Assembly (NCBI RefSeq): GCF_000341895.1
Contig: NC_020409.1
Location: forward strand, 1,020,001 to 1,052,000
Length of the DNA stretch: 32,000 nt
DNA from: Pseudodesulfovibrio piezophilus C1TLV30
GTDB lineage: Bacteria > Desulfobacterota > Desulfovibrionia > Desulfovibrionales > Desulfovibrionaceae
Direction: 5' to 3'
The notes under the pieces are model-generated. The model was not told where the DNA came from. It saw only the letters and a program-made list of their open reading frames with translations, and searched no databases. This document shows positions 1,538-28,910 of this stretch, in pieces (position 1 is the stretch's first letter; each line of letters begins with the position of its first letter). A program made the translations under genes and the position numbers.

Positions 1538-3118
1538 ATGGCTTATACACAACAGGACCCCTCCGACCTCAGCTACCTGGTCACACTCAAAATGGTGCAG
1601 GAGACGCTGAAACGGGATGCCCCGCTTGAGGAGTCACTGAACGCACTGCTCAAAATCCTGGCACAGGATATGGAGTACGTCAGGGCCTTCATGGTCATCA
1701 TGGACCCCAAGACCGAGAACCTCAAACTCTCGCTCACATACAGTCCGGCCCAGGCAGATGATGTCACCTATTCGCCTGGACGCGGCATTATCGGCCGTGT
1801 CTTCGATTCCGGTGAATCCATAACCGTGACACGGATGTCCGACGATTCAGAATTCCTCAACAAGGCTTTCGGCCGAAGTGAAGAAGAACTGAAAAAGCTC
1901 GGTTTCATCTGCGTTCCGGTCGTTAACCGCCGTTCTGAGGAAGAAGAAGTCATCGGAGCGCTTTCTGTCGACGTTCCACTGATTCCAGCTGATGACATGG
2001 CGGCACACTGCCAGTTCTTGGAAGTCGTTGCCGGTATTATCGCCGGTCATGTCGCACAGCTGCAGGAAGAGATGGCAACCCAGAACCATCTGCTTTCTCA
2101 AGGCATGATGGCCGGCGGTATGGACGCAGCCCCTCCCAAGGATTTTGTCGCCGCGTCCAAGGCCATGCGTCTTGTGCTGCGTCAATCCAGACAGGTCGCT
2201 CCAAGTCGGGCTACTGCTCTTTTGCGAGGAGAATCCGGAACAGGCAAGGAACTGCTTGCCGAAGCCATTCACTCCTCCAGCCCTCGGGCCGACAAACCAC
2301 TTATCAAGCTTAACTGCGCAGCTTTACCATCCGAACTTATCGAGTCCGAGCTTTTCGGTCACCAGAAAGGAGCCTTCACCGGAGCCTTCCAGACCAAACG
2401 GGGTCTCTTTGAAGTTGCGGATCAGGGGACGCTGTTCCTGGATGAAATCGGCGAACTTTCCATGGATGCCCAAGCCAAGGTTCTGCGTGCCATTCAGGAA
2501 AAGGAAATCCAGAGAGTCGGGTCTGAACAGACGATCACCGTTGATGTCCGGCTTATCTGCGCCACACACCAACCTCTTGAAGAACTCCTTGAAAGCGGCA
2601 GATTTCGCGAAGATCTCTATTACCGTATCAATGTCTTCCCCATTTTCATTCCATCTCTCAAGGAACGGCGTGAGGATATCCTGCCTCTGGCAGAATACTT
2701 CCTTGCAGACTTTGCAGATGAATATGGCAAGGAAGTCAAACGAATATCCACGCCTGCCATTGAACTTCTGGTCATGTACCATTGGCCCGGCAATGTGCGT
2801 GAACTGAAGAATTGCATGGAACGCGCAGTGCTCCTGTGCGAGGAAGCGGTGATTCGAACCTACCACCTCCCCCCGACACTTCAGTCGGCAGAAAGTTCGG
2901 CCACAGGGACCAATCTCTCTTTTGGCGAAGCTGTTGCCAAATTTGAGCAGGAACTACTGGTGGATTCACTGAAAAAGACAGGTGGCAACATGCTGCAATC
3001 CGCCCGAGACCTTCGTGTTTCATACCGGATTGTCAATTACAAGGTAAAGAAGTACAATATTGACGTGAAGAAATTCTCGCAATCCAAAAAGAAATCCAAA
3101 AAAAGATTGGAAGTCTAG
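1538..3118 (+). CDS. Sigma54-dependent transcriptional activator (EBP) with GAF, AAA+ and Fis-type HTH domains (NifA-like architecture)
   Basis: Walker A GESGTGKE, GAFTGA sigma54-contact loop and Walker B LFLDEIGE are present, with a C-terminal HTH (GGNMLQSARDLRVSYRIVNYKVKKYNI). The N-terminal ~170 aa are GAF-like. SD AAAGGAAAC precedes the ATG. Confidence 0.9.
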   Translation: MAYTQQDPSDLSYLVTLKMVQETLKRDAPLEESLNALLKILAQDMEYVRAFMVIMDPKTENLKLSLTYSPAQADDVTYSPGRGIIGRVFDSGESITVTRMSDDSEFLNKAFGRSEEELKKLGFICVPVVNRRSEEEEVIGALSVDVPLIPADDMAAHCQFLEVVAGIIAGHVAQLQEEMATQNHLLSQGMMAGGMDAAPPKDFVAASKAMRLVLRQSRQVAPSRATALLRGESGTGKELLAEAIHSSSPRADKPLIKLNCAALPSELIESELFGHQKGAFTGAFQTKRGLFEVADQGTLFLDEIGELSMDAQAKVLRAIQEKEIQRVGSEQTITVDVRLICATHQPLEELLESGRFREDLYYRINVFPIFIPSLKERREDILPLAEYFLADFADEYGKEVKRISTPAIELLVMYHWPGNVRELKNCMERAVLLCEEAVIRTYHLPPTLQSAESSATGTNLSFGEAVAKFEQELLVDSLKKTGGNMLQSARDLRVSYRIVNYKVKKYNIDVKKFSQSKKKSKKRLEV

Positions 3119-3131
3119 CCCCCGAAAAAAC

Positions 3132-3171
3132 GGTCCCTGTCGCTCTTCTGTGACAGGGACCTTTCATTTTT
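3132..3171 (+). terminator. Rho-independent terminator after the sigma54 activator gene
   Basis: A 10-bp perfect stem GGTCCCTGTC / GACAGGGACC with a 10-nt loop is followed by TTTCATTTTT. Confidence 0.7.
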
Positions 3172-3220
3172 CTCTTCAAGATAAGACTTTCTGCCCTTTA
3201 CTTCCACTTCTCCCGGAGCG

Positions 3221-3236
3221 AGGGATTTCCTTTGCT
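3221..3236 (+). promoter_or_regulatory. Candidate sigma54 (-24/-12) promoter upstream of GT2 paralog 1
   Basis: AGGGATTTCCTTTGCT has GG-N10-GC spacing and a perfect -12 TTGCT, but a weak -24 (GGGA rather than GGCA). It sits 26 nt upstream of the ATG at 3262 and directly downstream of an EBP gene. Confidence 0.3.
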
Positions 3237-3261
3237 CCACCATTTCTGATACATCCCATTC

Positions 3262-4881
3262 ATGCACACAGTTACCTCTCTCATTCAGCAACTCATCACT
3301 CTGACTCGAAATACAGGCTACCTGACTCCAGATCACGCCATGGCAGTAGCCGGTAATATTCTCGAAGCCCGGCCTCTCCCTGATGCTCTCGCAGCTCTGG
3401 CCCCAGCCCTTCTGCGCCATGCTACCATCTTTGATCCGTTTGATAGGGAAAAGATCCGGCTTGCGCACGAGATCAACGAACGTATTCCACATCCCCCCTT
3501 CAGCCAATGGATAAGACATGCCAGGGCTCTGACCAAAGATGAACCTATCCCGGAAAATATTCCATTCCCCGATGTCAGCACGGCTTCCGCACAAGAATGC
3601 ATTGCATTCATCGCACATCAAACCGCCAATAGTCACAGATACCCCATCCTGCTCCACCTCTGGCAGACAGGGGCCGGGCCGGAACTCATCAAAGCGATCA
3701 GGATTCTCGCCGCCTCCCCGTCTGGAATGTTGGCGGCCCCTCTCATGGCCTGGGGAGCCTATGCTGCGGGAAAACCTCTACTCACCGAGATGCTGCTCGA
3801 AGAGGGAGTGGATTCCTTCGTGGCCCACAACCTTCGTGCCCGCATAGCCCTGGACAGTGGCATCCATGCAAAAGCCGTTGAATATCTGAGGACGTCACTC
3901 GAAGCCGAGCCGTTCCAACCCGCGATCATCGAACAATTGGCAACACTGGAATCAGACAATTCCGAGTCCTTTCCAGAGGATAATACTCATATATGCCTCT
4001 ATACATGGAATAAACCGGAACTTCTCGCACAGACCCTGCACAGCCTTGCACACACTGCCATCGGATCGACCGGCGTCACTGTCCTCAACAACGGGACCAC
4101 GACCTGCTCCCCGGATGAATTGGAAAGGCGCGTCCATGATCAGACTCCGGGCCTCTCAATTCATTGGGTACATCTGCCTGTAAATATCGGTGCCCCAGCC
4201 GCTCGCAACTGGCTTCTTTCCCTGCCCGAAGTCCGCCAGTGTCGCTATGTGGCCTTCCTTGATGATGACGTGCTCCTCCCCCGAACATGGCTGGCACAAT
4301 TCCATAAGACACTCCGCCGCTTCCCCGAGGCTGCAGCGGTCGGTCCCAAATGCATGAATCCGAATGTGCATACAATTCAGTACGCTTTCCGACATTTTAC
4401 GCAGACAGGGCAGGACATGATTCGTTTCAGTCCCAATGCTCCCACACTCATGGATATGGGCCAATTCGACTCTGCTCGTCCGAGCCTCACTGTCATGGGA
4501 TGCTGCCATCTGCTGGACACCAAACGATTGGCAGCGCGAAAAGTACCACACTTCGATATACGATTCTCTCCCTCCCAAGTGGATGACATAGAACATGATC
4601 TCCAGATATGGAAAGCAGGCGGACAGGTTTTCTACGACGGCTCTGTTGGCGTGGTTCACCTTCAGGACACAGGAAAAGCCCAATCACGCGCCACTATTGG
4701 GCATACCTATGCAAATCATTCCAAACTCGAAGCCATATTTTCACAGGAAGAACTGAGCATGATGGACGCGGCATACAAGGACGCTGACAAAAGCGCATTC
4801 AGCAAATCACTCCAAGCCGTCCTTCCTACCCTGAATGGAACGGCCCGTGTCTTTTGGGAAACAATCAAAACAAACATATAA
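3262..4881 (+). CDS. Helical TPR-like N-terminal domain fused to a family-2 glycosyltransferase (paralog 1 of 3)
   Basis: Carries the GT2 core blocks LPVNIGAPAARNWLLSLPEV, FLDDDVLLP (DxD) and FDIRFSPSQVDDIEHDL (COG1216-type FDxxF...EDxDL signature). It is clearly paralogous to 5619-7256 and 7331-9013. No obvious SD precedes the start. Confidence 0.8.
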   Translation: MHTVTSLIQQLITLTRNTGYLTPDHAMAVAGNILEARPLPDALAALAPALLRHATIFDPFDREKIRLAHEINERIPHPPFSQWIRHARALTKDEPIPENIPFPDVSTASAQECIAFIAHQTANSHRYPILLHLWQTGAGPELIKAIRILAASPSGMLAAPLMAWGAYAAGKPLLTEMLLEEGVDSFVAHNLRARIALDSGIHAKAVEYLRTSLEAEPFQPAIIEQLATLESDNSESFPEDNTHICLYTWNKPELLAQTLHSLAHTAIGSTGVTVLNNGTTTCSPDELERRVHDQTPGLSIHWVHLPVNIGAPAARNWLLSLPEVRQCRYVAFLDDDVLLPRTWLAQFHKTLRRFPEAAAVGPKCMNPNVHTIQYAFRHFTQTGQDMIRFSPNAPTLMDMGQFDSARPSLTVMGCCHLLDTKRLAARKVPHFDIRFSPSQVDDIEHDLQIWKAGGQVFYDGSVGVVHLQDTGKAQSRATIGHTYANHSKLEAIFSQEELSMMDAAYKDADKSAFSKSLQAVLPTLNGTARVFWETIKTNI

Positions 4882-4906
4882 AAAACGCCCGATATTCACC
4901 GGGCGC
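4878..4906 (-). terminator. Terminator between convergent genes, best on the minus strand
   Basis: A CGCCCG / CGGGCG stem with an 8-nt loop. On the minus strand it is followed by TTTTTTATAT, which serves the 4932-5483 gene. On the plus strand an A-tract precedes it and the T-tract is weak. Confidence 0.6.
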
Positions 4907-4931
4907 TATCCAATTTCATGCTTTCTTCGTA

Positions 4932-5483
4932 TTATTTGAACGAGCGGGCAAATAACTCTTCCAAAGCGATTTTCCCGTTCTCCTCAAGAAAACGGGTCCC
5001 GGTTCCCGTGAAATGCCTGTCGGTAATAACTGGTGTCTCAACGGAAATCCACGCACCCTTTTCCCATTTGAACCAACAATTCTTGACCTGACCAAAGACA
5101 TAGAGGTCCTTGTTGCAAATCTTGGCAAACTCGGCTCCCCACCCGGTCCCGCCCTTGACGGTTCCGTCTTCCTGGATGGTTCCAACCACAAAGACTTCAT
5201 GCCCAGACTCGACCTGATGCATAATGGTCTGCAAGACCTTGCGCATTTTCTCGGCGTTGGTAAATTTCCGATTGAGCAGCTTGGCTACATAAGTCAAACT
5301 GACATCTTTTCTGGTCAATTCCTCATTGGTCAGAACCCGTACGCCTCGAGTCCGCTCAATCCTGTGCCCTTCAAAGGTGTAATTCACTTCAGCCAGCCCG
5401 TAATACTCGGCCAGCTTGCCGAATTGATTTTCCGCGCCCTGGGCTCCGCCGCTGAATAAGGTGTAGCTTTCGTATTTGGACAT
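4932..5483 (-). CDS. Small Rossmann-like protein, SLOG / molybdenum-cofactor-carrier-like (183 aa)
   Basis: The start is placed at MSKYES, where the ATG at 5483 is preceded by AAGGAGAG. An N-terminal SGGAQGAE Gly-rich loop and a later DGT-x-KGGTGWGAEFA block resemble the SGGxxGxD plus GGT motifs of MoCo-carrier/DprA/LOG-type SLOG folds. The family assignment is by eye only. Confidence 0.5.
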   Translation of the reverse strand: MSKYESYTLFSGGAQGAENQFGKLAEYYGLAEVNYTFEGHRIERTRGVRVLTNEELTRKDVSLTYVAKLLNRKFTNAEKMRKVLQTIMHQVESGHEVFVVGTIQEDGTVKGGTGWGAEFAKICNKDLYVFGQVKNCWFKWEKGAWISVETPVITDRHFTGTGTRFLEENGKIALEELFARSFK

Positions 5484-5618
5484 GGTCTCTCCTTGAAAAT
5501 GATATGAAGTGTCTTCTGAATCGCTGGCTTGACGGCACATGTAGCACTCGTTTGATACGCCGGGCAATATCTTCGCATTATATTTTCCCGGGAAGCCAAC
5601 CTCCTCTTAAGGCCGCGC

Positions 5619-7256
5619 TCATGAACGGTACCCCACTTGAGCCTGTTTTGCCAGCAGGTCAGCCAAGAGCACTTTATCCATATCGCGGGCCATTTTCTCA
5701 AATTCCTCTGGCTCATATTTGGTCATGAGTTTACGAAGATTGGCTGTGGCCCCGGCGGACTCACCCCCGCCCAATTCACTCTGTGCTCCTGATTTCCTTT
5801 TGTGCGCAATAGAGAGAAATCCTGTATAAACGGCGTATCCACCGGCAAGAACCATGCGAAGGTCTCGTTCCAGGTCATCGTATTGCGTGGGAGAAAAGCG
5901 AAGATCAAAGTCCCCGGTTTCAAGCAGCCGTTGTGTACGGAAAAGATGCACACACCCTGTCACCGATGCACAGGGACGAATATAGTCTGCCTGTCCGAAA
6001 TCAGCATCCTGCAACATGAGAGTCCCCATCAATGCCTCCTGCCGGTGACCGGGTGAGGGAGCCAGATTGTGTTCACCACACTGCATCCGGGCCGGACCGT
6101 TGAAATCAACGACCTTGCATCCCCACACTCCGGCATCAGGATACTGTTTCACAGCCTCACCCAATCGCCCGAGCCAATCACCAGGCAAGGCAATGTCATC
6201 ATCGATATACGCTACAAAGTCAGAAACCTGCACTTCAGGCAAATGCATAAGCCAGTTGCGAGCGGCCGGTGCTCCCACATTGACAGGCAAAGCCACCGAT
6301 GAAGCCCGTTCCGGGCCAAACTTCTCGATGAAATGATTGATTACATCTGAAGTCGTGTCCGAACTGCCATTATCAAGCAAACAGACTCGGATGTCCGATT
6401 CCACCGCTCCTTTACTGGAGAGCAACGAATCCAGAGTCGTGACAAGGTCGTCTGCTTTGTTCCAACTGTAACCAAGCACCGTCACCCTTCCCGGCAACCT
6501 GGCAACGTTTTTCGCAGAACCGGCAAGGTGATCATGCAGCCGCAGCCAGAGACTGACATTCCACGGACGTTCGGCCACACACCTCTCAAGCAATCCAAGA
6601 GCTTTCTCTTCCTTGCCCGACCGAAGCCATGCCGTGATCAGACGCTCCTTCACCACGGGCAAGGGCAACGTATTCAAATTTTCCCGATACATTCCGGCTG
6701 CGGGAAGCACCTCACCCAATGCAAGCATGGCATTTGCTTTGGCATACGCAAACAAAGATGCCAATTCTGATCGAGGTATCGTGCTGGATATCATTTCGAC
6801 GAGGAATTCCCACTGAGAATTAATTCGAACGAATTCATACAGGTGATGCCACCAGAAAAGATTTTGCGGGGTTTTCACCAGACGGTTTCGCAAAAAATCC
6901 ATCTGAGTACGGACGTCTGCCGACATGGCTATCCGAGCTTCGGGCGTGACCTCGGGATGCCAATGGGAAAGAACTGCCCTGATTACGGGTAACAGGACTG
7001 GCGACACAGGGGGCAACGATTCCAGATGACTTGCCAAACCGGCAACACAATTTCCGTCAAAAGGATTTTCACCCCATGCGGCCAGAAATAAATCCTGTGC
7101 AATGCTTGCTATAATAGGGGAATTTTCCCAATTGCCTGCCAGAGCAGAACCAGTGGCACTCTGCAAATGCAGCCTGCCCGAGAAACCGAGTAACAGGTGT
7201 CGCCGCAAATCATGTGGCAACGAAGTCAAGTCAAAGGAAGGGTTCATGGTTTCCAA
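5619..7256 (-). CDS. Helical TPR-like N-terminal domain fused to a family-2 glycosyltransferase (paralog 2 of 3)
   Basis: Contains LDNGSSDTT, LPVNVGAPAARNWLMHLPEV, YIDDDIALP and FDLRFSPTQYDDLERDL. The start is either the TTG at 7256, which has a TAG stop immediately upstream, or the ATG at 7247. Confidence 0.8.
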   Translation of the reverse strand: METMNPSFDLTSLPHDLRRHLLLGFSGRLHLQSATGSALAGNWENSPIIASIAQDLFLAAWGENPFDGNCVAGLASHLESLPPVSPVLLPVIRAVLSHWHPEVTPEARIAMSADVRTQMDFLRNRLVKTPQNLFWWHHLYEFVRINSQWEFLVEMISSTIPRSELASLFAYAKANAMLALGEVLPAAGMYRENLNTLPLPVVKERLITAWLRSGKEEKALGLLERCVAERPWNVSLWLRLHDHLAGSAKNVARLPGRVTVLGYSWNKADDLVTTLDSLLSSKGAVESDIRVCLLDNGSSDTTSDVINHFIEKFGPERASSVALPVNVGAPAARNWLMHLPEVQVSDFVAYIDDDIALPGDWLGRLGEAVKQYPDAGVWGCKVVDFNGPARMQCGEHNLAPSPGHRQEALMGTLMLQDADFGQADYIRPCASVTGCVHLFRTQRLLETGDFDLRFSPTQYDDLERDLRMVLAGGYAVYTGFLSIAHKRKSGAQSELGGGESAGATANLRKLMTKYEPEEFEKMARDMDKVLLADLLAKQAQVGYRS

Positions 7257-7330
7257 CTATGCGGCAACTCCGGTAAAGTCAATAAACCCTCCTTTCGAAG
7301 CTATCGCTTTTCTGGTAGAAGAGAAACACG

Positions 7331-9013
7331 ATGCACAGATTTTTCATTCCCCAAACTCTCCCGCCCTGTAGTGGCATACGTCCCGAATTCAGGGAACGTT
7401 TTTCCGGGTGGCACCTCGGCATGGGGCTGCCTGAAACCCTTCTCGCGCTCATCAGAGGGTTAAACGCTCTGGGCAGAGATATCCCCTCGTGTAAAAATAC
7501 CGCTCTCGGAATGGGAGTGTGGGGATTCCAGACCCATCCGCTCATGCATGATCTGGCTCAAGCAGCCGTGGAGACGACCGCAACGGTCAATACGAATCCA
7601 CAACAAAAAGCACTGGCTGAACGGATCGCTGCAACACCAAAGCTCAATGATACAGATACGGAAACCATGGAAACATGGCATGCTCTGGTTAGACAGGAGG
7701 ATCGATCCCTGCTGCTTCGTTTCCTCGCCGTTGTCCTGGCAGACTCGACCAAAGGACTTTCGTGGCTTGGTCACTGTTGGCAGGATATGTTATTTCTCGG
7801 ACGACCTGAGATACCAAAAGCCGCCCTGGACATGGTTCAATGGGATGCCATCACCTTTCCGCTCAAAGCCAGGCTGGAAGCTGAATGGAGCTTTCATTGC
7901 CACCAGCCAGAGCAAGCTCTGCAAGCCATAGAATCGCTCGACTCTGATCTATGGGGACTCTGGCGGGCCTATACCGGGGCAGAAGTGTTGATACGAAGCG
8001 GTGAAACCGAGGAAGCCAAGGAGGTACTCTCCAACCTCTGGAGCATGATTCCGTGGCATATCAATCTGACCCTCAAACTGCACGCCCTCTTCAACCCCAT
8101 TGTCATGGCCGCAGATGAAAAAACAAACGATGCCGCAATCCTCGTTTACTCATGGAATAAAGGAGAATTGCTTGCCCAAACACTCAAAAGTCTCGCCTCC
8201 AGCAATCTCGGGCAAGCCCGAATTTATGCCCTTGATAACGGTTCTACAGACAACACACCCGAAGTTCTCAGACAGGCACAGGATATATTCGGAGCAGAAC
8301 GCTTTCAGACCATAACCCTCCCTGTCAACGTAGGCGCACCTGCTGCACGCAACTGGCTGCTTTCGTTGCCAGCTGTTCGTACGGCTCAATGGGCCGCCTT
8401 TCTTGATGACGATGTTATTCTGCCCAAAGACTGGCTCCTTCATCTACTGGGAGCGGCGCAGGGAGACAAAAAACTCGGTGCGGTTGGCTGCCGCATCACC
8501 GCGGCCACTCCTCCTTTCGGTCTACAATCAGCAGACTACAATCTTTTCCCCACTCCGCCCAAAAAAACTGCACCGGGACACCTTCCCAATCGGGTTCTCC
8601 TGTACGACAATTGTGCCGGATCAACAGATACAGGACTATTCTCGTACACGCGCCCCTGTCTGTCTGTTTCGGGATGCTGCCACCTGATCAATATGGAAGC
8701 TGTTCGCATGGCCGGGGGATTCGACCTACGCTATACGCCATCTCAATTTGATGATCTTGACAGAGACCTCCGTTCTGCGCTGGCAGGGATGCCTGCTCTA
8801 TATACAGGAACCATGGCTATCCATCATGTCCAGCACTCCAGTCTTGCCAAATCAAAAAGTGTGCAGCAGATAGGCCATGTCATGGGCAACAAATTCAAAC
8901 TCGATACTCGATACACCGATGAAGAATTACTCCGGCTTGGTGCTGAAAACCGTGAACGCCTCTGGGATGACCTGCAAACCAAACATGATTTTCTCGCCGC
9001 CCTTCTCGGTTGA
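7331..9013 (+). CDS. Helical TPR-like N-terminal domain fused to a family-2 glycosyltransferase (paralog 3 of 3)
   Basis: Contains LDNGSTDNT, LPVNVGAPAARNWLLSLPAV, FLDDDVILP and FDLRYTPSQFDDLDRDL. It is divergent from paralog 2 across a ~75-nt spacer. Confidence 0.8.
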   Translation: MHRFFIPQTLPPCSGIRPEFRERFSGWHLGMGLPETLLALIRGLNALGRDIPSCKNTALGMGVWGFQTHPLMHDLAQAAVETTATVNTNPQQKALAERIAATPKLNDTDTETMETWHALVRQEDRSLLLRFLAVVLADSTKGLSWLGHCWQDMLFLGRPEIPKAALDMVQWDAITFPLKARLEAEWSFHCHQPEQALQAIESLDSDLWGLWRAYTGAEVLIRSGETEEAKEVLSNLWSMIPWHINLTLKLHALFNPIVMAADEKTNDAAILVYSWNKGELLAQTLKSLASSNLGQARIYALDNGSTDNTPEVLRQAQDIFGAERFQTITLPVNVGAPAARNWLLSLPAVRTAQWAAFLDDDVILPKDWLLHLLGAAQGDKKLGAVGCRITAATPPFGLQSADYNLFPTPPKKTAPGHLPNRVLLYDNCAGSTDTGLFSYTRPCLSVSGCCHLINMEAVRMAGGFDLRYTPSQFDDLDRDLRSALAGMPALYTGTMAIHHVQHSSLAKSKSVQQIGHVMGNKFKLDTRYTDEELLRLGAENRERLWDDLQTKHDFLAALLG

Positions 9014-9074
9014 CCCACACCGGATCCATGCTTACTCTTACCTTGACCAATTCAGTACGAATTAGGAGATAACC

Positions 9075-9398
9075 ATGGACGACGTCAGAATATACGGCGA
9101 TTTTCACCGCATCACTCCAGATATTTTCGAGCAAATCAAGGATGCAATCCCTGTTGATCAGGTTGAGTACGATGGTGATGTGTTACGAATTGACCATGAA
9201 GGGACCTATATCCTGATGGACGACTTTATCGAATTAATCAGTAAGAGACTGCCCGAGGAGGGCTATGGGCATGTCGAATTCATCGACAACCTCGAATGGG
9301 AAGTGACACGGTATACAATAACTCCCGGCAAGATAGAGCACAAGAAAATCAAAGTGGATAATGTCCTCGATGCTCATATGCGTGACCTCGGCATGTAA
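9075..9398 (+). CDS. Hypothetical acidic 107-aa protein, probably co-transcribed with GT2 paralog 3
   Basis: A strong SD AGGAGATAACC precedes the ATG, 61 nt after the paralog 3 stop, and a strong terminator follows. I recognise no family. Confidence 0.65.
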   Translation: MDDVRIYGDFHRITPDIFEQIKDAIPVDQVEYDGDVLRIDHEGTYILMDDFIELISKRLPEEGYGHVEFIDNLEWEVTRYTITPGKIEHKKIKVDNVLDAHMRDLGM

Positions 9399-9414: not shown

Positions 9415-9457
9415 GAAAAAAATAGGCCACCCGAACTCGGGCGGCCTATTTTTTTCT
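9415..9457. terminator. Bidirectional rho-independent terminator
   Basis: ATAGGCCACCCG-AACT-CGGGCGGCCTAT forms a 12-bp stem with one mismatch, flanked by an A7 tract upstream and a T7 tract downstream. It lies between the convergent 9075-9398 (+) and csp (-) genes. Confidence 0.75.
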
Positions 9458-9472
9458 GCTTGCTATAAACAA

Positions 9473-9703
9473 TCAGAAATGAAGTGACTGTGATGCAGCA
9501 TGCATTAGTCTGACATCGACAGCTTTGGGGCCAATCTTCTCATCGACGATATCGAAAGAGACTCGCTCCCCAGCATCCAGGGTCTGGAACCCATCACGTA
9601 TAACTTCGGAATAATTAACAAAGACATCCGATCCATCATCTGCGAGGATGAAACCGAATCCTTTTTGCTCGTTAAACCAACTGACCGTCCCTTCTCGCCG
9701 CAC
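9473..9703 (-). CDS. Cold-shock domain protein (CspA family)
   Basis: GTVSWFNEQKGFGFI (RNP1-like) and DVFVNYS (RNP2-like) are present. I prefer the GTG start at 9703 because GGAGG lies 5 nt upstream. The longer ORF-track start at 9796 and the ATG at 9715 both lack an SD. Confidence 0.85.
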   Translation of the reverse strand: MRREGTVSWFNEQKGFGFILADDGSDVFVNYSEVIRDGFQTLDAGERVSFDIVDEKIGPKAVDVRLMHAASQSLHF

Positions 9704-9736
9704 ACCGACCTCCATGGAATAGGTAGATACGAAGCG

Positions 9737-9765
9737 AAGATAGCCCGATACCATATTCTTGGCAA
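9737..9765 (-). promoter_or_regulatory. Candidate sigma70 promoter for csp
   Basis: On the minus strand, TTGCCA, a 17-nt spacer, then TATCTT, ending ~30 nt upstream of the GTG start. Confidence 0.35.
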
Positions 9766-9798
9766 TCCGGTTTCTCTTAAAAAGGGTTCGAGACAATT

Positions 9799-9957
9799 TT
9801 ACTCAGAAACCGGTCTCTCTGCTTCTTCAGGTATGCCAACACCATCTTCAGCTGTTTCCAGCTTCTTGGCGTCCTTGCGTTTCTGCTTTTCTTCTTTCTT
9901 CTTCTTCTTAGCCATTTCCTTCTGTCGCTTTGCAAACTTATAATTGGGCTTGGCCAA
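9799..9957 (-). CDS. Small Lys/Glu-rich basic protein (52 aa), absent from the ORF track
   Basis: The minus strand reads GGGAGGAAAAT-TTG GCC AAG CCC AAT TAT AAG TTT GCA AAG CGA CAG AAG GAA ATG GCT AAG AAG AAG AAG AAA GAA GAA AAG ... TAA. The product is (M)AKPNYKFAKRQKEMAKKKKKEEKQKRKDAKKLETAEDGVGIPEEAERPVSE, with a strong SD at correct spacing. It sits between two RNA-chaperone-type genes. Confidence 0.4.
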   Translation of the reverse strand: MAKPNYKFAKRQKEMAKKKKKEEKQKRKDAKKLETAEDGVGIPEEAERPVSE

Positions 9958-10002
9958 ATTTTCCTCCCTGTTAAGATGACTTCCGCCTCTGACTGAAAGC
10001 GC

Positions 10003-10043
10003 GGAAAAAGAAAACGCCCGACTCCCGAATGAGAGGCGGGCGT
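10003..10043 (-). terminator. Rho-independent terminator after the RRM protein gene
   Basis: On the minus strand an ACGCCCG...CGGGCGT imperfect hairpin is followed by TTTTCTTTTTCC, 33 nt after the stop at 10076. Confidence 0.6.
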
Positions 10044-10075
10044 AGATGTGCCTGATTGATCAGCAGGTAAAATGC

Positions 10076-10339
10076 TTACCAGCGAGGACGCTCAACACGG
10101 GGTTTGGCTTCGTTGACCTTGATGTTACGGCCACCGAAATCTTTGCCGTCCAGAGCTTCGATAGCATCCAGGTAGCCGTCTTCGGACATTTCGACAAAGC
10201 CGAAACCACGGGGACGACCGGTTTCGCGGTCTTCGATCAACTTAACGGAAGTAACTTCACCATATGCCGCAAACGCTGCACGGACCTCATCTTCAGTTGC
10301 GGACCAGGGCAAATTGCCGACATAAATGTTCTTGGACAT
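10076..10339 (-). CDS. RRM-type (RNP-1) RNA-binding protein, 87 aa
   Basis: NIYVGNL (RNP2) and RGFGFVEM (RNP1) motifs are present. The start is at MSKNIY (ATG 10339) with an AGGAG SD 8 nt upstream. The longer ORF-track start adds an implausible hydrophobic leader. Confidence 0.9.
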   Translation of the reverse strand: MSKNIYVGNLPWSATEDEVRAAFAAYGEVTSVKLIEDRETGRPRGFGFVEMSEDGYLDAIEALDGKDFGGRNIKVNEAKPRVERPRW

Positions 10340-10387
10340 TAAAAAACTCCTAAAGAAAGTGATGTGAAAATGACGCCCGTGCGTCAC

Positions 10388-10433
10388 TATAAAAATAATA
10401 AAAGAAGCAGCGTACACGATGCGCACGCTGCTC
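10388..10433 (-). terminator. Terminator-like hairpin plus U-tract inside the 262-nt spacer upstream of the RRM gene
   Basis: The minus-strand RNA reads GAGCAGCGU-gcgcaucgugu-ACGCUGCUU (8 bp perfect plus a G-U pair) followed by CUUUUAUUAUUUUUAUA. A second small hairpin, UGACGC-ACGG-GCGUCA plus UUUU, lies at 10371-10386. Confidence 0.5.
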
Positions 10434-26956: not shown

Positions 26957-27976
26957 TCACGCCGCCGGAATATAGTCTCGCCCGAGAGCAAGACCACGGC
27001 TCTCGAGGAATGAAATGATATCCCCCCGAGCACCTCGACTGGCAACGTATGGGATGCAAAATCCTTCTCCCGGCGCCGGTATGGTCGAGCGGTCGCGAAC
27101 CTCAATACCATGAACCACATGGCCTATCTTTCGGGGATCAATGTCATAATAGGCGGCAAAGGTTATCCCGTAGTCAAGCAAAAGATCTGCGCGCTTACGG
27201 GTAACACGCCCGGCTCCTAGGATATGGACACAGGGGTGATGCGGATTATTCCGTTCGAGCCAGCGCGCCAGATATTCAGTCTTGATGCGGTAAAACGCCT
27301 CCACATCGTACCGAGGATGATTTCGGGACAAACGACTTGGCGGGTCATTCCAAACAAGAAGATCCTCATCCACCTTGGCCATCACAACTCCGCCTTCCAG
27401 CCACCGAAGCAACAGATCGTAATCCTCAGGGAAATCACCATCGCGATACCCTCCATGAACGTCCAGGCATTCCCGCCGGAACATGATTGACGGATTCGGT
27501 ACAGGAAATTCCACAAATCTATGCAACTGAATGGATTCAGGAGTCAAAAGCGTATTGGTCCAATCCACATAATGGGCATACCCGGCACTCTGCTCTCTGC
27601 ATCCGCCAAATCGAACTCGACATCCCACCAACCCCAAGGAAGGGTCAGAGTCGAGCAAACGGGACTGTGCAGCCAACCGGTTCGGGAGGGCCAGGTCATC
27701 GGCATCCATACGGGCCAGATACATACCGCGAGCGGTTGCGAGCGCGGTATTGGCTGCGGTAACAACACCACCATGCAAACTCGTAACCACTCGAATACGG
27801 GAATCCCGGCCTGCATATTCAGCCAGAACTCCCGCAGTCGTATCAGTACTTCCGTCATCTACGGCCACCACTTCGAAATCCGCCATGGTCTGGGCGAGCA
27901 GGCTTTCCAGCGCGGCCCCGACAGTATCCCCACAATTATAGCAGGGTATGGTGACGGAAATCTTCGGCGTGCTCAT
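26957..27976 (-). CDS. Family-2 glycosyltransferase (SpsA-like N-terminal domain) with a ~110-aa C-terminal Rossmann-like extension
   Basis: ISVTIPCYNCGDTV...VAVDDGSTDTT...ARMDADD (DxD) marks the GT2 domain. The C-terminal ILGAGRVTRKRADLLLDYGITFAAYYDIDPRKIGHVVHGIEV resembles the NeuD/PglD-type N-terminal nucleotide- or CoA-binding module. The start lies 4 nt after the upstream stop. Confidence 0.8.
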   Translation of the reverse strand: MSTPKISVTIPCYNCGDTVGAALESLLAQTMADFEVVAVDDGSTDTTAGVLAEYAGRDSRIRVVTSLHGGVVTAANTALATARGMYLARMDADDLALPNRLAAQSRLLDSDPSLGLVGCRVRFGGCREQSAGYAHYVDWTNTLLTPESIQLHRFVEFPVPNPSIMFRRECLDVHGGYRDGDFPEDYDLLLRWLEGGVVMAKVDEDLLVWNDPPSRLSRNHPRYDVEAFYRIKTEYLARWLERNNPHHPCVHILGAGRVTRKRADLLLDYGITFAAYYDIDPRKIGHVVHGIEVRDRSTIPAPGEGFCIPYVASRGARGDIISFLESRGLALGRDYIPAA

Positions 27977-27980
27977 TTTG

Positions 27981-28910
27981 TTACAATCCTTCTACTGTGG
28001 CAGCGGCCTTTTTAGTGGCTACGGATTCCTTTATTCGACAAATGGAACATCTCCCCACACTCGTGGGAGAGCCACATTCTTTACAGGGTTTCAACTCAGC
28101 TCCGATCTCTTTCTCAAGATTGGCAAAGGCCTGTTTACCACGCTGAAGGAACCCCTGATAAAACTGAAACTTCTGACCAGGACTACGATATTCCAACTCC
28201 CCCCACAATTCCTTGTGGTTGGTAAAACTGGCTCCTGAAGAATATGGGCAAGGGTCCGAATGTATCTCGATACCCTTCAAAAATGCATAGTTGGCAGTCT
28301 CGAATTCAGTCAGCCGAAAAAGCGGTTTGACCTTGCGAACAAAACCGTCGGCAGCGGGCAAAACCGGTCCCTGATCGGAAAGGTACGCTGTATCCCACCG
28401 AAGTGTATTGGCAAAAAGGCGTGCGACTTCGTCATCCAGGTTATGCCCAGTAGCCAGTGCATCATAGCCCCCTTCCCTCGCTATGCGGTTAAAATGATGC
28501 CGCTTCATCTTGCCGCACACGGCACAGACAGGCCGATCGACGTGCTCTTTGATATCACAAACAGGTAGACCCCATTTCTCCATCTCGAAGACGTCCAATT
28601 TCAGATCCTGCGCATCGCAAAAGTTCTCGACTTTCTTACGGGCCTTATAAGACGAATCAGGAATGCCAAGATCAATATGCAACCCTGTGACGTCATATCC
28701 CTGCAATTTGAGTTCGAGCATCAAGCCCAGCGAATCCTTGCCACCAGACAGAGCGACAAGAATACGCTCATCCTTGGTAAACATCTTTTCGCGGCGAATA
28801 GCGGTTTCAACCTGGCGGGTAAAAAACAACGGAAAACATTCAGGACAAAACCCGGCGTGATGACTCGGAAGAGCGACGCACGCAAGTTTTTTGCAACGAG
28901 AGCATTTCAT
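27981..28910 (-). CDS. PP-loop ATP pyrophosphatase of the TtuA/Ncs6/TtcA type (sulfurtransferase-like)
   Basis: It has an N-terminal Zn finger (CSRC...CPEC) and the PP-loop SGGKDS. Fe-S ligand-like Cys are present (CAVCGKMKRH and DPCPYS), with a C-terminal Zn finger (CKECG...CSIC). Confidence 0.8.
   Translation of the reverse strand: MKCSRCKKLACVALPSHHAGFCPECFPLFFTRQVETAIRREKMFTKDERILVALSGGKDSLGLMLELKLQGYDVTGLHIDLGIPDSSYKARKKVENFCDAQDLKLDVFEMEKWGLPVCDIKEHVDRPVCAVCGKMKRHHFNRIAREGGYDALATGHNLDDEVARLFANTLRWDTAYLSDQGPVLPAADGFVRKVKPLFRLTEFETANYAFLKGIEIHSDPCPYSSGASFTNHKELWGELEYRSPGQKFQFYQGFLQRGKQAFANLEKEIGAELKPCKECGSPTSVGRCSICRIKESVATKKAAATVEGL

Follow-up and report, generated by a model that had tools for sequence, protein, structure and literature searches.

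What do three diverged glycosyltransferase genes in the genome of Pseudodesulfovibrio piezophilus C1TLV30 modify, and do the genes lying among and beside them take part? The genes are found in a window of 32,000 nucleotides (positions 1,020,001 to 1,052,000 of contig NC_020409.1), from whose first letter all positions below are counted. We call the three paralogues, in window order, GT1, the GT2 gene and GT3, and reserve the term "GT2 family" for the glycosyltransferase family with the PF00535 domain and the GT-A fold. Sequence analysis indicates that all three are soluble cytoplasmic glycosyltransferases of one Desulfovibrionales-wide family. The list of open reading frames (ORFs) agrees with the gene order described in the original prediction, in which the three genes run +, -, + around a gene for a 183-aa protein and are followed by a gene for an acidic 107-aa protein (p107):

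3262-4881, plus strand: GT1, ORF of 539 aa, soluble TPR-like plus GT2-family (GT-A) glycosyltransferase, apparently transcribed alone
4932-5483, minus strand: the 183-aa gene, ORF whose open frame extends to 5567, predicted SLOG-fold (Mo-carrier-like) protein, downstream of the GT2 gene
5619-7256, minus strand: the GT2 gene, ORF of 545 aa (542 aa from the probable start ATG at 7247), TPR-like plus GT2-family glycosyltransferase
7331-9013, plus strand: GT3, ORF of 560 aa, TPR-like plus GT2-family glycosyltransferase
9075-9398, plus strand: p107, ORF of 107 aa, acidic product, probably cotranscribed with GT3

The NCBI annotation of P. piezophilus gives matching lengths for the 183-aa protein (CCH48216) and p107 (CCH48219), and GT1 is 100% identical to the corresponding NCBI protein. 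The hydrophobic segments of all five proteins are too short to form a membrane helix.

Profile, motif and fold together place the three proteins among the GT-A enzymes of the GT2 family and predict that they transfer glycosyl groups. The Glycos_transf_2 profile (PF00535) exceeds its gathering cut-off of 23.3 bits in each of them, with 30.2 bits for GT1 (residues 244-361), 49.4 bits for the GT2-gene protein (residues 265-396) and 65.4 bits for GT3. The catalytic domain carries a DDD motif for metal and nucleotide-sugar binding, in which an alignment of 139 homologues shows D360 without exception and D359 and D361 with a conservation of at least 90%, and a conserved Q-x-DD-x-x-x-D motif on the acceptor side. 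GT3 was modeled with AlphaFold2 from an alignment of 139 sequences, with a predicted local distance difference test score (pLDDT) of 95.4 and a predicted TM score (pTM) of 0.94. The model consists of helices at residues 18-254, a GT-A domain at residues 268-500 and two long C-terminal helices at residues 504-559; the high pTM predicts a fixed packing of the helical half on the catalytic domain. Foldseek searches of the PDB with this model ranked GlfT2 first (9dtp and 4fix; E of about 1e-9, probability 1.0), followed by ppGalNAc-transferases, AvpGT, chondroitin polymerase and CgT, and a PDB sequence search with GT3 recovered nothing significant. These structural matches are generic to the GT-A fold and do not single out an acceptor. 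GlfT2, the galactofuranosyltransferase of mycobacteria and Nocardia, has in common with GT3 the DxD motif, the acidic acceptor-side motif of the COG1216-type group and helices after the GT-A core. It acts on lipid-linked galactan and has an N-terminal β-barrel domain, whereas the N-terminal half of GT3 is all-helical and the window has no glf gene for a UDP-galactopyranose mutase (UGM). With the alignment restricted to the GT-A core (TM score, 0.33-0.37; identity, 15-18%), an assignment as a GlfT2-like polymerizing galactofuranosyltransferase was rejected beyond that core. Membership in the characterized exopolysaccharide (EPS), O-antigen or rhamnosyl GT2-family equivalogs was likewise rejected: the best NCBIfam matches (HpsN, HpsE, MftF, EpsD, TuaG and rhamnosyltran) score 16-41 bits against cut-offs of 200-425 bits, i.e., ten-fold under them, and no characterized O-antigen, EPS or rhamnosyltransferase family represented there claims the three proteins.

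The N-terminal half, of about 250 residues, is on the evidence of the model a TPR-like solenoid packed on the catalytic domain. In GT3, it comprises 13 helices of 9-18 residues, with a pLDDT of at least 88 in every 10-residue block of residues 34-254. Pfam searches detected sub-threshold TPR_14, TPR_2 and TPR_16 matches at the last helix pairs, which in the window proteins score 15-19.5 bits against the TPR_14 cut-off of 23.5 (in GT1, TPR_14 and TPR_2 match residues 188-229). A homologue that is 40% identical to the GT2-gene protein over its full length (P0176) shows a genuine TPR_2 match of 42 bits (cut-off, 27), which aligns to residues ~188-240 of the GT2-gene protein. The original prediction had read the ORFs as a TPR-like region joined to a GT2-family enzyme; the 13 helices preceding the GT-A domain and the TPR_2 match of the full-length homologue bear this architecture out, and the N-terminal regions do consist of repeat-type helices.

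The triplicate nature of the genes, each with a helical N-terminal half and a GT2-family C-terminal half, emerges consistently from the ORF list, the Pfam searches, the GT3 model and a three-way alignment of the proteins. The blocks quoted earlier from the translations, Y(T/S)WNK, LPVN(I/V)GAPAARNWL, (F/Y)(L/I)DDD and FD(I/L)R..P.Q.DD, were all recovered in that alignment, where xxDDDxxLPxxWL and FDxRxxPxQxDDxxxDL recur in all three proteins and the ends of the N-terminal halves, described as weakly similar, come into register. Over the full length, the GT2-gene protein and GT3 are 27-32% identical to GT1. Identity is distributed unevenly between the domains, amounting to 31-38% among the catalytic halves and 12-15% among the N-terminal (acceptor-side) halves, so that the latter have diverged far more. 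This is the pattern expected if the N-terminal half were the determinant of specificity.

Each of the three genes has its own orthologues. GT1 orthologues are 56-65% identical to the window protein, with relatives at 38-49% in Desulfonatronum, Desulfohalovibrio and Desulfosoma, and orthologues of the GT2 gene are 50-64% identical. GT1-type and GT2-type proteins taken together are found at 50-65% in Pseudodesulfovibrio and at 36-49% in Desulfonatronum, Desulfohalovibrio, Oceanidesulfovibrio and Desulfosoma. GT3, the most widely conserved of the three subfamilies, is represented at 58-67% in Pseudodesulfovibrio and at 36-50% in Salidesulfovibrio, Maridesulfovibrio, Paucidesulfovibrio, Solidesulfovibrio, Humidesulfovibrio, Desulfocurvus, Nitratidesulfovibrio and Halodesulfovibrio. 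All but one of 136 sampled homologues are clearly nearest to a single copy (best identity of 36-67% versus second-best of 23-34%), a separation somewhat favored by construction, as the sample was taken from each copy's own match list. The copies themselves are only 24-34% alike. The three genes are therefore ancient paralogues rather than a recent triplication, and they represent three old subfamilies that extend across several families of Desulfovibrionales. Most Desulfovibrionaceae have members, often in several copies, and no functional study of these glycosyltransferases in Desulfovibrio or P. piezophilus was found in the literature; the protein and surface glycosylation of sulfate reducers in general is poorly mapped.

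A survey of 95 loci revealed which of the associations in the window are durable. The full block, i.e., sigma-54 activator (EBP)-GT1-183aa-GT2-GT3-p107-CSD-ABC-DUF362-HypF (CSD, cold-shock domain), recurs in Pseudodesulfovibrio aespoeensis-like metagenome-assembled genomes (MAGs), P. profundus, P. pelocollis and a few MAGs (loci L009-L012, L016 and L018; L013 is without GT1 in the stretch covered). An lpxB->GT3->p107 arrangement without the other genes is found in P. indicus, P. karagichevae and two MAGs (L001, L014, L015 and L017). More than 40 loci from at least 8 genera have a single GT3-type gene on the plus strand between Sua5/YciO and SpoU genes, both on the minus strand, and about 20 loci show a divergent pair of GT2-like (-) and GT3-like (+) genes in which GT3 is often followed by a gene for a 405-434-aa EpsD/MftF-like GT2-family protein (GT434). 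Conserved synteny, expected of the trio in related genomes, thus holds for the GT3-p107 and GT2|GT3 pairs, and the complete trio is confined to some Pseudodesulfovibrio. As p107 is retained even where GT1, the GT2 gene and the 183-aa gene are absent, GT3-p107 is the tightest pair in the region: the small gene comes after GT3 in all loci with a Pseudodesulfovibrio-type GT3 orthologue, L001, L014, L015 and L017 among them, with an identity of 55-81%. No p107 relatives were detected outside Pseudodesulfovibrio-type loci, and its product has no Pfam match (E<=10) and no PDB sequence match. A pattern scan of the genome contigs yielded no confirmed relative of p107 although orthologues exist in the loci, which marks the limit of the pattern search. 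The acidity noted for p107 was confirmed (pI of 4.55), and serine and threonine make up 5.6% of its residues. The family is a reasonable subject for experiments, given how widely it occurs in Desulfovibrionales, how deeply its three paralogues have diverged and how closely GT3 and p107 are coupled.

Members in Desulfonatronum and Desulfosoma lie in variable, island-like regions, unlike the stable GT3 slot of Desulfovibrionaceae. At L007 8821-9662 and 11833-12553, L094 3992-4887 and L008 14322-14957, these islands are interrupted by toxin-antitoxin-type genes (NTP_transf_2 and Polbeta/HepT pairs, PIN), AAA ATPases and an IS481-type transposase.

With regard to the acceptor, we tentatively favor a protein, while placing this reading somewhat short of an even chance. 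Each enzyme would move a glycosyl group from a nucleotide sugar to a macromolecular acceptor in the cytoplasm, without a lipid carrier, and the diverged TPR-like half would recognize that acceptor, most probably a protein such as flagellin or another substrate of the Maf/nonulosonic acid (NulO) pathways. The three paralogues would serve different acceptor sites or successive steps in the building of one glycan, and p107 would be a cis-encoded partner of GT3, acting as an accessory or specificity factor rather than as the substrate. Tight coupling to GT3 and paucity of serine and threonine in p107 are what suggest an accessory factor. A precedent for such a factor is seen in Maf-2, which requires the small cis-encoded specificity factor GlfM. 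In the glycosyltransferase-rich loci L007, L008, L092 and L094, we detected no Wzx/Wzy, ABC exporter or priming transferase gene, and a cytoplasmic, carrier-free pathway fits this gene content.

The closest precedent in domain order is FlmG of Caulobacter crescentus, also a soluble protein of ~560-600 aa with an N-terminal TPR followed by a C-terminal glycosyltransferase domain. The FlmG TPR binds the flagellin acceptor, and its catalytic domain is GT-B (PMC7591256), in contrast to the GT-A/GT2-family domain seen here by AlphaFold2 and Foldseek, for which reason membership in the FlmG family was rejected. Moreover, the FlmG donor is CMP-pseudaminic acid, and the P. piezophilus window has no flagellin or NulO genes. 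A second precedent is offered by GT2-family plus TPR proteins of flagellin islands, namely, Listeria GmaR and the predicted flagellin glycosyltransferases of Clostridium sporogenes, which have the same two components and were compared by description only. In GmaR, the GT2-family domain comes first and the TPR second, whereas the TPR-like half of the P. piezophilus proteins is N-terminal and scores under the Pfam TPR cut-offs. By analogy, therefore, the family resembles FlmG in domain order and the flagellin glycosyltransferases with GT2-family and TPR regions in composition. The earlier statement that a TPR-glycosyltransferase fusion is the hallmark of protein-targeting enzymes is too strong, given that the FlmG catalytic domain is GT-B and that the TPRs of capsule polymerases mediate oligomerization.

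Gene neighborhoods in other genera lend some support to a protein-targeting role, and it is this part of the original prediction that is still plausible, as opposed to its sigma-54 and SLOG-module parts. Clostridium proteins with GT2-family and TPR regions co-occur with maf genes, an adjacency that serves as a predictor of flagellin glycosyltransferases (PMC13317340), and comparable neighbors are seen for members at L092 and L051. In Desulfohalovibrio reitneri (L092), a gap of 21 bp separates the gene for a GT1-type member from a downstream gene for a 592-aa MptE-like Maf-type protein (PF01973, PseD-like), and the genes divergently upstream code for a PseF-like cytidylyltransferase, two methyltransferases, GT4s and a radical-SAM enzyme. 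At L051, L066 and L089, the gene next after a GT2-type member codes for a Maf/PseD-like protein of 657 aa, and P. indicus and P. karagichevae have a Maf/PseD-like gene at a distance of 6 kb from GT3. In P. indicus (L001 2388-6735), the Maf/PseD-like gene is co-oriented with genes for PAP2 and ArnT-like (PMT_2) proteins upstream of gnnA-like/lpxB/GT3/p107, an unusual occurrence of a Maf-type enzyme in a lipid-A-modification context.

A more ambitious version of the protein reading would make the family an unrecognized, Desulfovibrionales-wide set of cytoplasmic GT-A protein O-glycosyltransferases, a counterpart of FlmG in which the TPR-like half of each paralogue would pick its own protein acceptor or site (on flagellins or other Maf-pathway substrates) and p107 would be a new sort of cis-encoded factor with a GlfM-like role; we regard it as rather unlikely. 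In any event, this is an uncharacterized family of a known kind, structurally conventional and not a new kind of system. If the TPR-like halves set acceptor specificity, the paralogues and p107 would offer a compact system for the study of acceptor choice by soluble GT-A enzymes.

Several observations weigh against a protein acceptor, and most of them point to the cell envelope. A link to flagellin or NulO genes is absent from the window and most loci; Maf-like and PseF-like genes do adjoin members at L092, L051, L066 and L089. The window has no maf, NulO or flagellar gene, and with the E. coli FliC N-terminal region as the query, none of the 95 loci showed a flagellin gene less than ~8 kb away from a member of the family. 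The Sua5|GT3|SpoU slot is a very stable housekeeping position that is uninformative on function. In L001, L014, L015 and L017, lpxB, GT3 and p107 are co-oriented, with genes for PAP2, an ArnT-like PMT_2 protein, BON and a GnnA-like protein (Gfo/Idh/MocA) nearby, and the members in Desulfonatronum and Desulfosoma lie amid GT4s, more GT2-family genes, TagF-like glycerophosphotransferases (Glyphos_transf; L008 and L094) and nucleotidyltransferases (NTP_transf_3), a content typical of glycopolymer synthesis. GlfT2, which gave the best PDB match, polymerizes a polysaccharide on a lipid-linked acceptor, and the TPR domain of the capsule polymerase Cps1B mediates oligomerization and is dispensable for activity (PMC5974469). 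Finally, GT3 is often followed by a second EpsD/MftF-like GT2-family gene, and the PRK07208 flavoprotein of the Desulfonatronum and Desulfosoma islands has faint UGM-like similarity at its N terminus. These observations would be accommodated if the family were instead made up of peripheral enzymes of the cytoplasmic face that build or decorate a lipid-anchored glycan, with the TPR-like domain as an oligomerization or scaffold module; the glycan might be an LPS (lipopolysaccharide) core or lipid A substituent or a teichoic-acid-like or galactan-like polymer. We consider this a doubtful but substantial possibility.

Several lines of evidence speak against such an envelope role. Neither the window nor the examined islands contain a priming transferase, flippase, polymerase, ABC exporter or sugar-nucleotide gene; in the window, the absence of flagellin, Wzx/Wzy and sugar-nucleotide genes had already been remarked on and was upheld by our gene search. 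The NCBIfam scores of 16-41 bits contrast with the 200-425 of the characterized EPS and O-antigen models. The GlfT2 match is generic to GT-A (TM score of ~0.35, 18% identity), the N-terminal domains being different, and the extreme divergence of the N-terminal halves is not expected of a pure oligomerization module. The Maf/PseF adjacencies also fit less well. Cps1B-type and other TPR-bearing TagF-like/GT-A capsule polymerases do combine GT-A with a large TPR region in cytoplasmic polymer-building enzymes, as here, but they are multidomain proteins of 800-1250 aa from ABC-transporter capsule loci (PMC5974469), whereas each of the P. piezophilus proteins has just one catalytic domain, and genes for capsule export are absent. 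Should lipid A, the LPS core or a polymer be what the family decorates, the modification would be an envelope trait conserved in the group, with a bearing on biofilm, corrosion and gut Desulfovibrio.

The flavoprotein mentioned above is a PRK07208-type protein (Amino_oxidase/NAD_binding_8) of 458-460 aa that always comes after the GT2-type member in Desulfonatronum, Desulfosoma and a Desulfohalobiaceae MAG (L007 4776-6158, L008 8638-10014, L094 7291-8673 and L082 3277-3819). It could make an unusual donor sugar. A GT434-like GT2-family gene follows it in three of the four loci; in L082, the contig ends within the flavoprotein gene.

A remote third candidate is an acceptor that is neither protein nor envelope glycan: a small molecule, such as a cofactor, a compatible solute or an MftF-like peptide-derived metabolite, or else a base in RNA or DNA. 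It could draw on a weak NCBIfam MftF match of GT3 (E of 1e-10) and a TET-associated glycosyltransferase match of GT1, both of which are far under the family cut-offs. The Sua5/YciO and SpoU genes that flank GT3-type genes in more than 40 loci recall RNA modification, but they lie on the opposite strand, and the THUMP methyltransferase gene that follows a GT2-like gene does so in just two close relatives (L070 and L072); we treated this RNA-modification link as vertical synteny and rejected it. The nucleotide-binding-type SLOG protein in the GT2 unit might also be cited in its favor, but the SLOG gene is linked to the family in one subgroup only, and a 250-residue TPR-like solenoid would be unusual for a small-molecule glycosyltransferase. 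We consider such acceptors improbable.

The favored protein reading makes no use of the sigma-54 activator or of the 183-aa protein, which we regard as neighbors, not components. The original prediction had treated them otherwise, proposing a dedicated module of three glycosyltransferases, SLOG protein and 107-aa protein under the control of the adjacent activator. The features that bear on transcription are as follows:

39-926 and 930-1526: iorA (truncated at the window edge) and iorB, upstream of the activator and with it the 3' part of an hyp-iorA-iorB-EBP operon
1538-3118, plus strand: the sigma-54 activator (EBP), with GAF, AAA+ and HTH_8 domains, judged to lie outside the glycosyltransferase unit
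3132-3161, no strand: intrinsic terminator with a 12-bp stem, after the sigma-54 activator
4884-4907, no strand: hairpin terminator between the convergent GT1 and 183-aa genes, AACGCCCGATATTCACCGGGCGCT, with an A-run and a T-run at its sides
7257-7330, no strand: divergent promoter region of the GT2 gene and GT3, with the conserved blocks AAAGTCAA and TTTCTGnTA in a seven-locus alignment
~9420-9455, no strand: bidirectional intrinsic terminator between p107 and the convergent cold-shock gene, AAAAAAATAGGCCACCCGAACTCGGGCGGCCTATTTTTTT

The hairpins at 3132-3161, 4884-4907 and ~9420-9455 substantiate the terminators anticipated at the unit ends, and their positions define three units: GT1 alone, the GT2 gene with the 183-aa gene, and GT3 with p107. 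All three would be transcribed from sigma-70-type promoters. In the seven genomes aligned, the divergent region between the GT2 gene and GT3 spans 74-83 bp, and its AAAGTCAA block, which reads TTGACTTT on the GT2 strand, and its TTTCTGnTA block may be taken as sigma-70-type -35 and extended -10 elements. The same alignment fixes the starts of the GT2 gene at ATG 7247 and of GT3 at ATG 7331. Public calls differ on these starts, JGI giving 530 aa for GT3 (7421 versus 7331) and 542 aa for the GT2 gene (7247 versus 7256). With ATG 7331 and ATG 7247, both leaders would be very short and have no obvious Shine-Dalgarno sequence.

Sites for sigma-54 are not apparent upstream of the glycosyltransferase genes. 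The GT2/GT3 intergenic region has no GG-N10-GC element in the seven-locus alignment, and the -24/-12 pattern is absent from 3119-3261 and 7257-7330, the nearest one-mismatch site lying within the GT2 coding sequence. A search with TGGCAC-N5-TTGC, allowing two mismatches, retrieved 40 sites in the window against a chance expectation of 35, and no site lies upstream of a glycosyltransferase gene; with a stricter -24/-12 pattern, neither the window nor L009, L011 and L001 gave a match close to the genes. The activator itself, NifA-like but under the cut-off, is the terminal gene of the hyp-iorA-iorB-EBP operon, whose order is kept in L009 and L011. In Desulfovibrio vulgaris, the hyp-iorAB-EBP operon corresponds to DVU1952-DVU1949, and the DVU1949 regulon concerns nitrogen metabolism (Kazakov et al. 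2015; PMC4641369); the orthology of our activator to DVU1949 rests on synteny. In favor of the module proposed earlier, the activator is adjacent to GT1 on the same strand, and the order EBP-GT1-183aa-GT2-GT3-p107 is kept in L009-L012, L016 and L018. Against it stand, besides the lack of -24/-12 elements, the strong terminator that parts the activator from GT1, the sigma-70-like intergenic blocks, the nitrogen-operon context, the occurrence of GT3-p107 without the activator, GT1, the GT2 gene and the 183-aa gene in P. indicus and others, and a 183-aa family unconnected to glycosyltransferases elsewhere. We conclude that the adjacent sigma-54 activator does not appear to control the glycosyltransferases and that the dedicated module, largely refuted, is highly improbable; this correction averts a wrong regulatory annotation. 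The activator is 90-95% identical across Pseudodesulfovibrio loci, far above the adjacent glycosyltransferases.

The 183-aa protein had been labeled SLOG/MoCo (molybdenum cofactor)-carrier-like, which proves right at the level of the fold. It has no Pfam match at E<=10 and hence none to a SLOG-family profile (PF12694, PF06908, PF03641, PF02481, etc.), and neither the single sequence nor a 20-sequence profile matched PDB sequences. Its AlphaFold2 model (pLDDT of 93), however, retrieved with Foldseek a putative molybdenum carrier protein, 3imk, as the best and only confident PDB match, followed by generic Rossmann folds. The likeness is modest (probability 1.0, E of 4.5e-3, TM score of 0.55/0.63, identity of 12%). 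Conserved glycine-rich motifs, SGGAxGAE and GGTGWG, fit a SLOG-type nucleotide-binding domain. The family shares fold and loops with the cpYpsA-type SLOG/Mo carrier but differs in its associations: most of its 1520 homologues at E<=1e-3 in the representative library constitute the C-terminal domain of ~430-aa proteins with an N-terminal KaiC/RecA-like AAA_25 ATPase. The named members come from Myxococcota, Acidobacteriota and others, and all are labeled "hypothetical." The domain is also found fused to an EF-Tu-type GTPase (P0437, 738 aa) and in a 3847-aa protein (P0502), and no Pfam model covers the family. With homologues mostly in ATPase fusions of unrelated phyla, and adjacency to glycosyltransferases limited to one Pseudodesulfovibrio subgroup, the 183-aa protein was rejected as a glycosyltransferase partner, and the notion of a dedicated module with a SLOG gene is not supported.

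Some further features of the window lie outside these units. Directly after the p107 terminator, genes for a cold-shock-domain protein and an RRM-type RNA-binding protein occupy 9473-10426 on the minus strand, the position of the former being kept in L009-L011. A further GT2-family gene, absent from the original prediction, is located at 26957-27976 and codes for a 339-aa protein with a PF00535 match of 101 bits. It lies directly downstream of a gene for a TtuA-like PP-loop ATPase (309 aa), the pair spanning 26957-28910 on the minus strand, and its product is 31-33% identical over ~226 residues to the GT434-like protein that follows GT3 in Nitratidesulfovibrio-type loci. All 1-kb bins of the window (1-32000) have a negative GC skew, whatever the gene orientation, with a cumulative value of -3.49.

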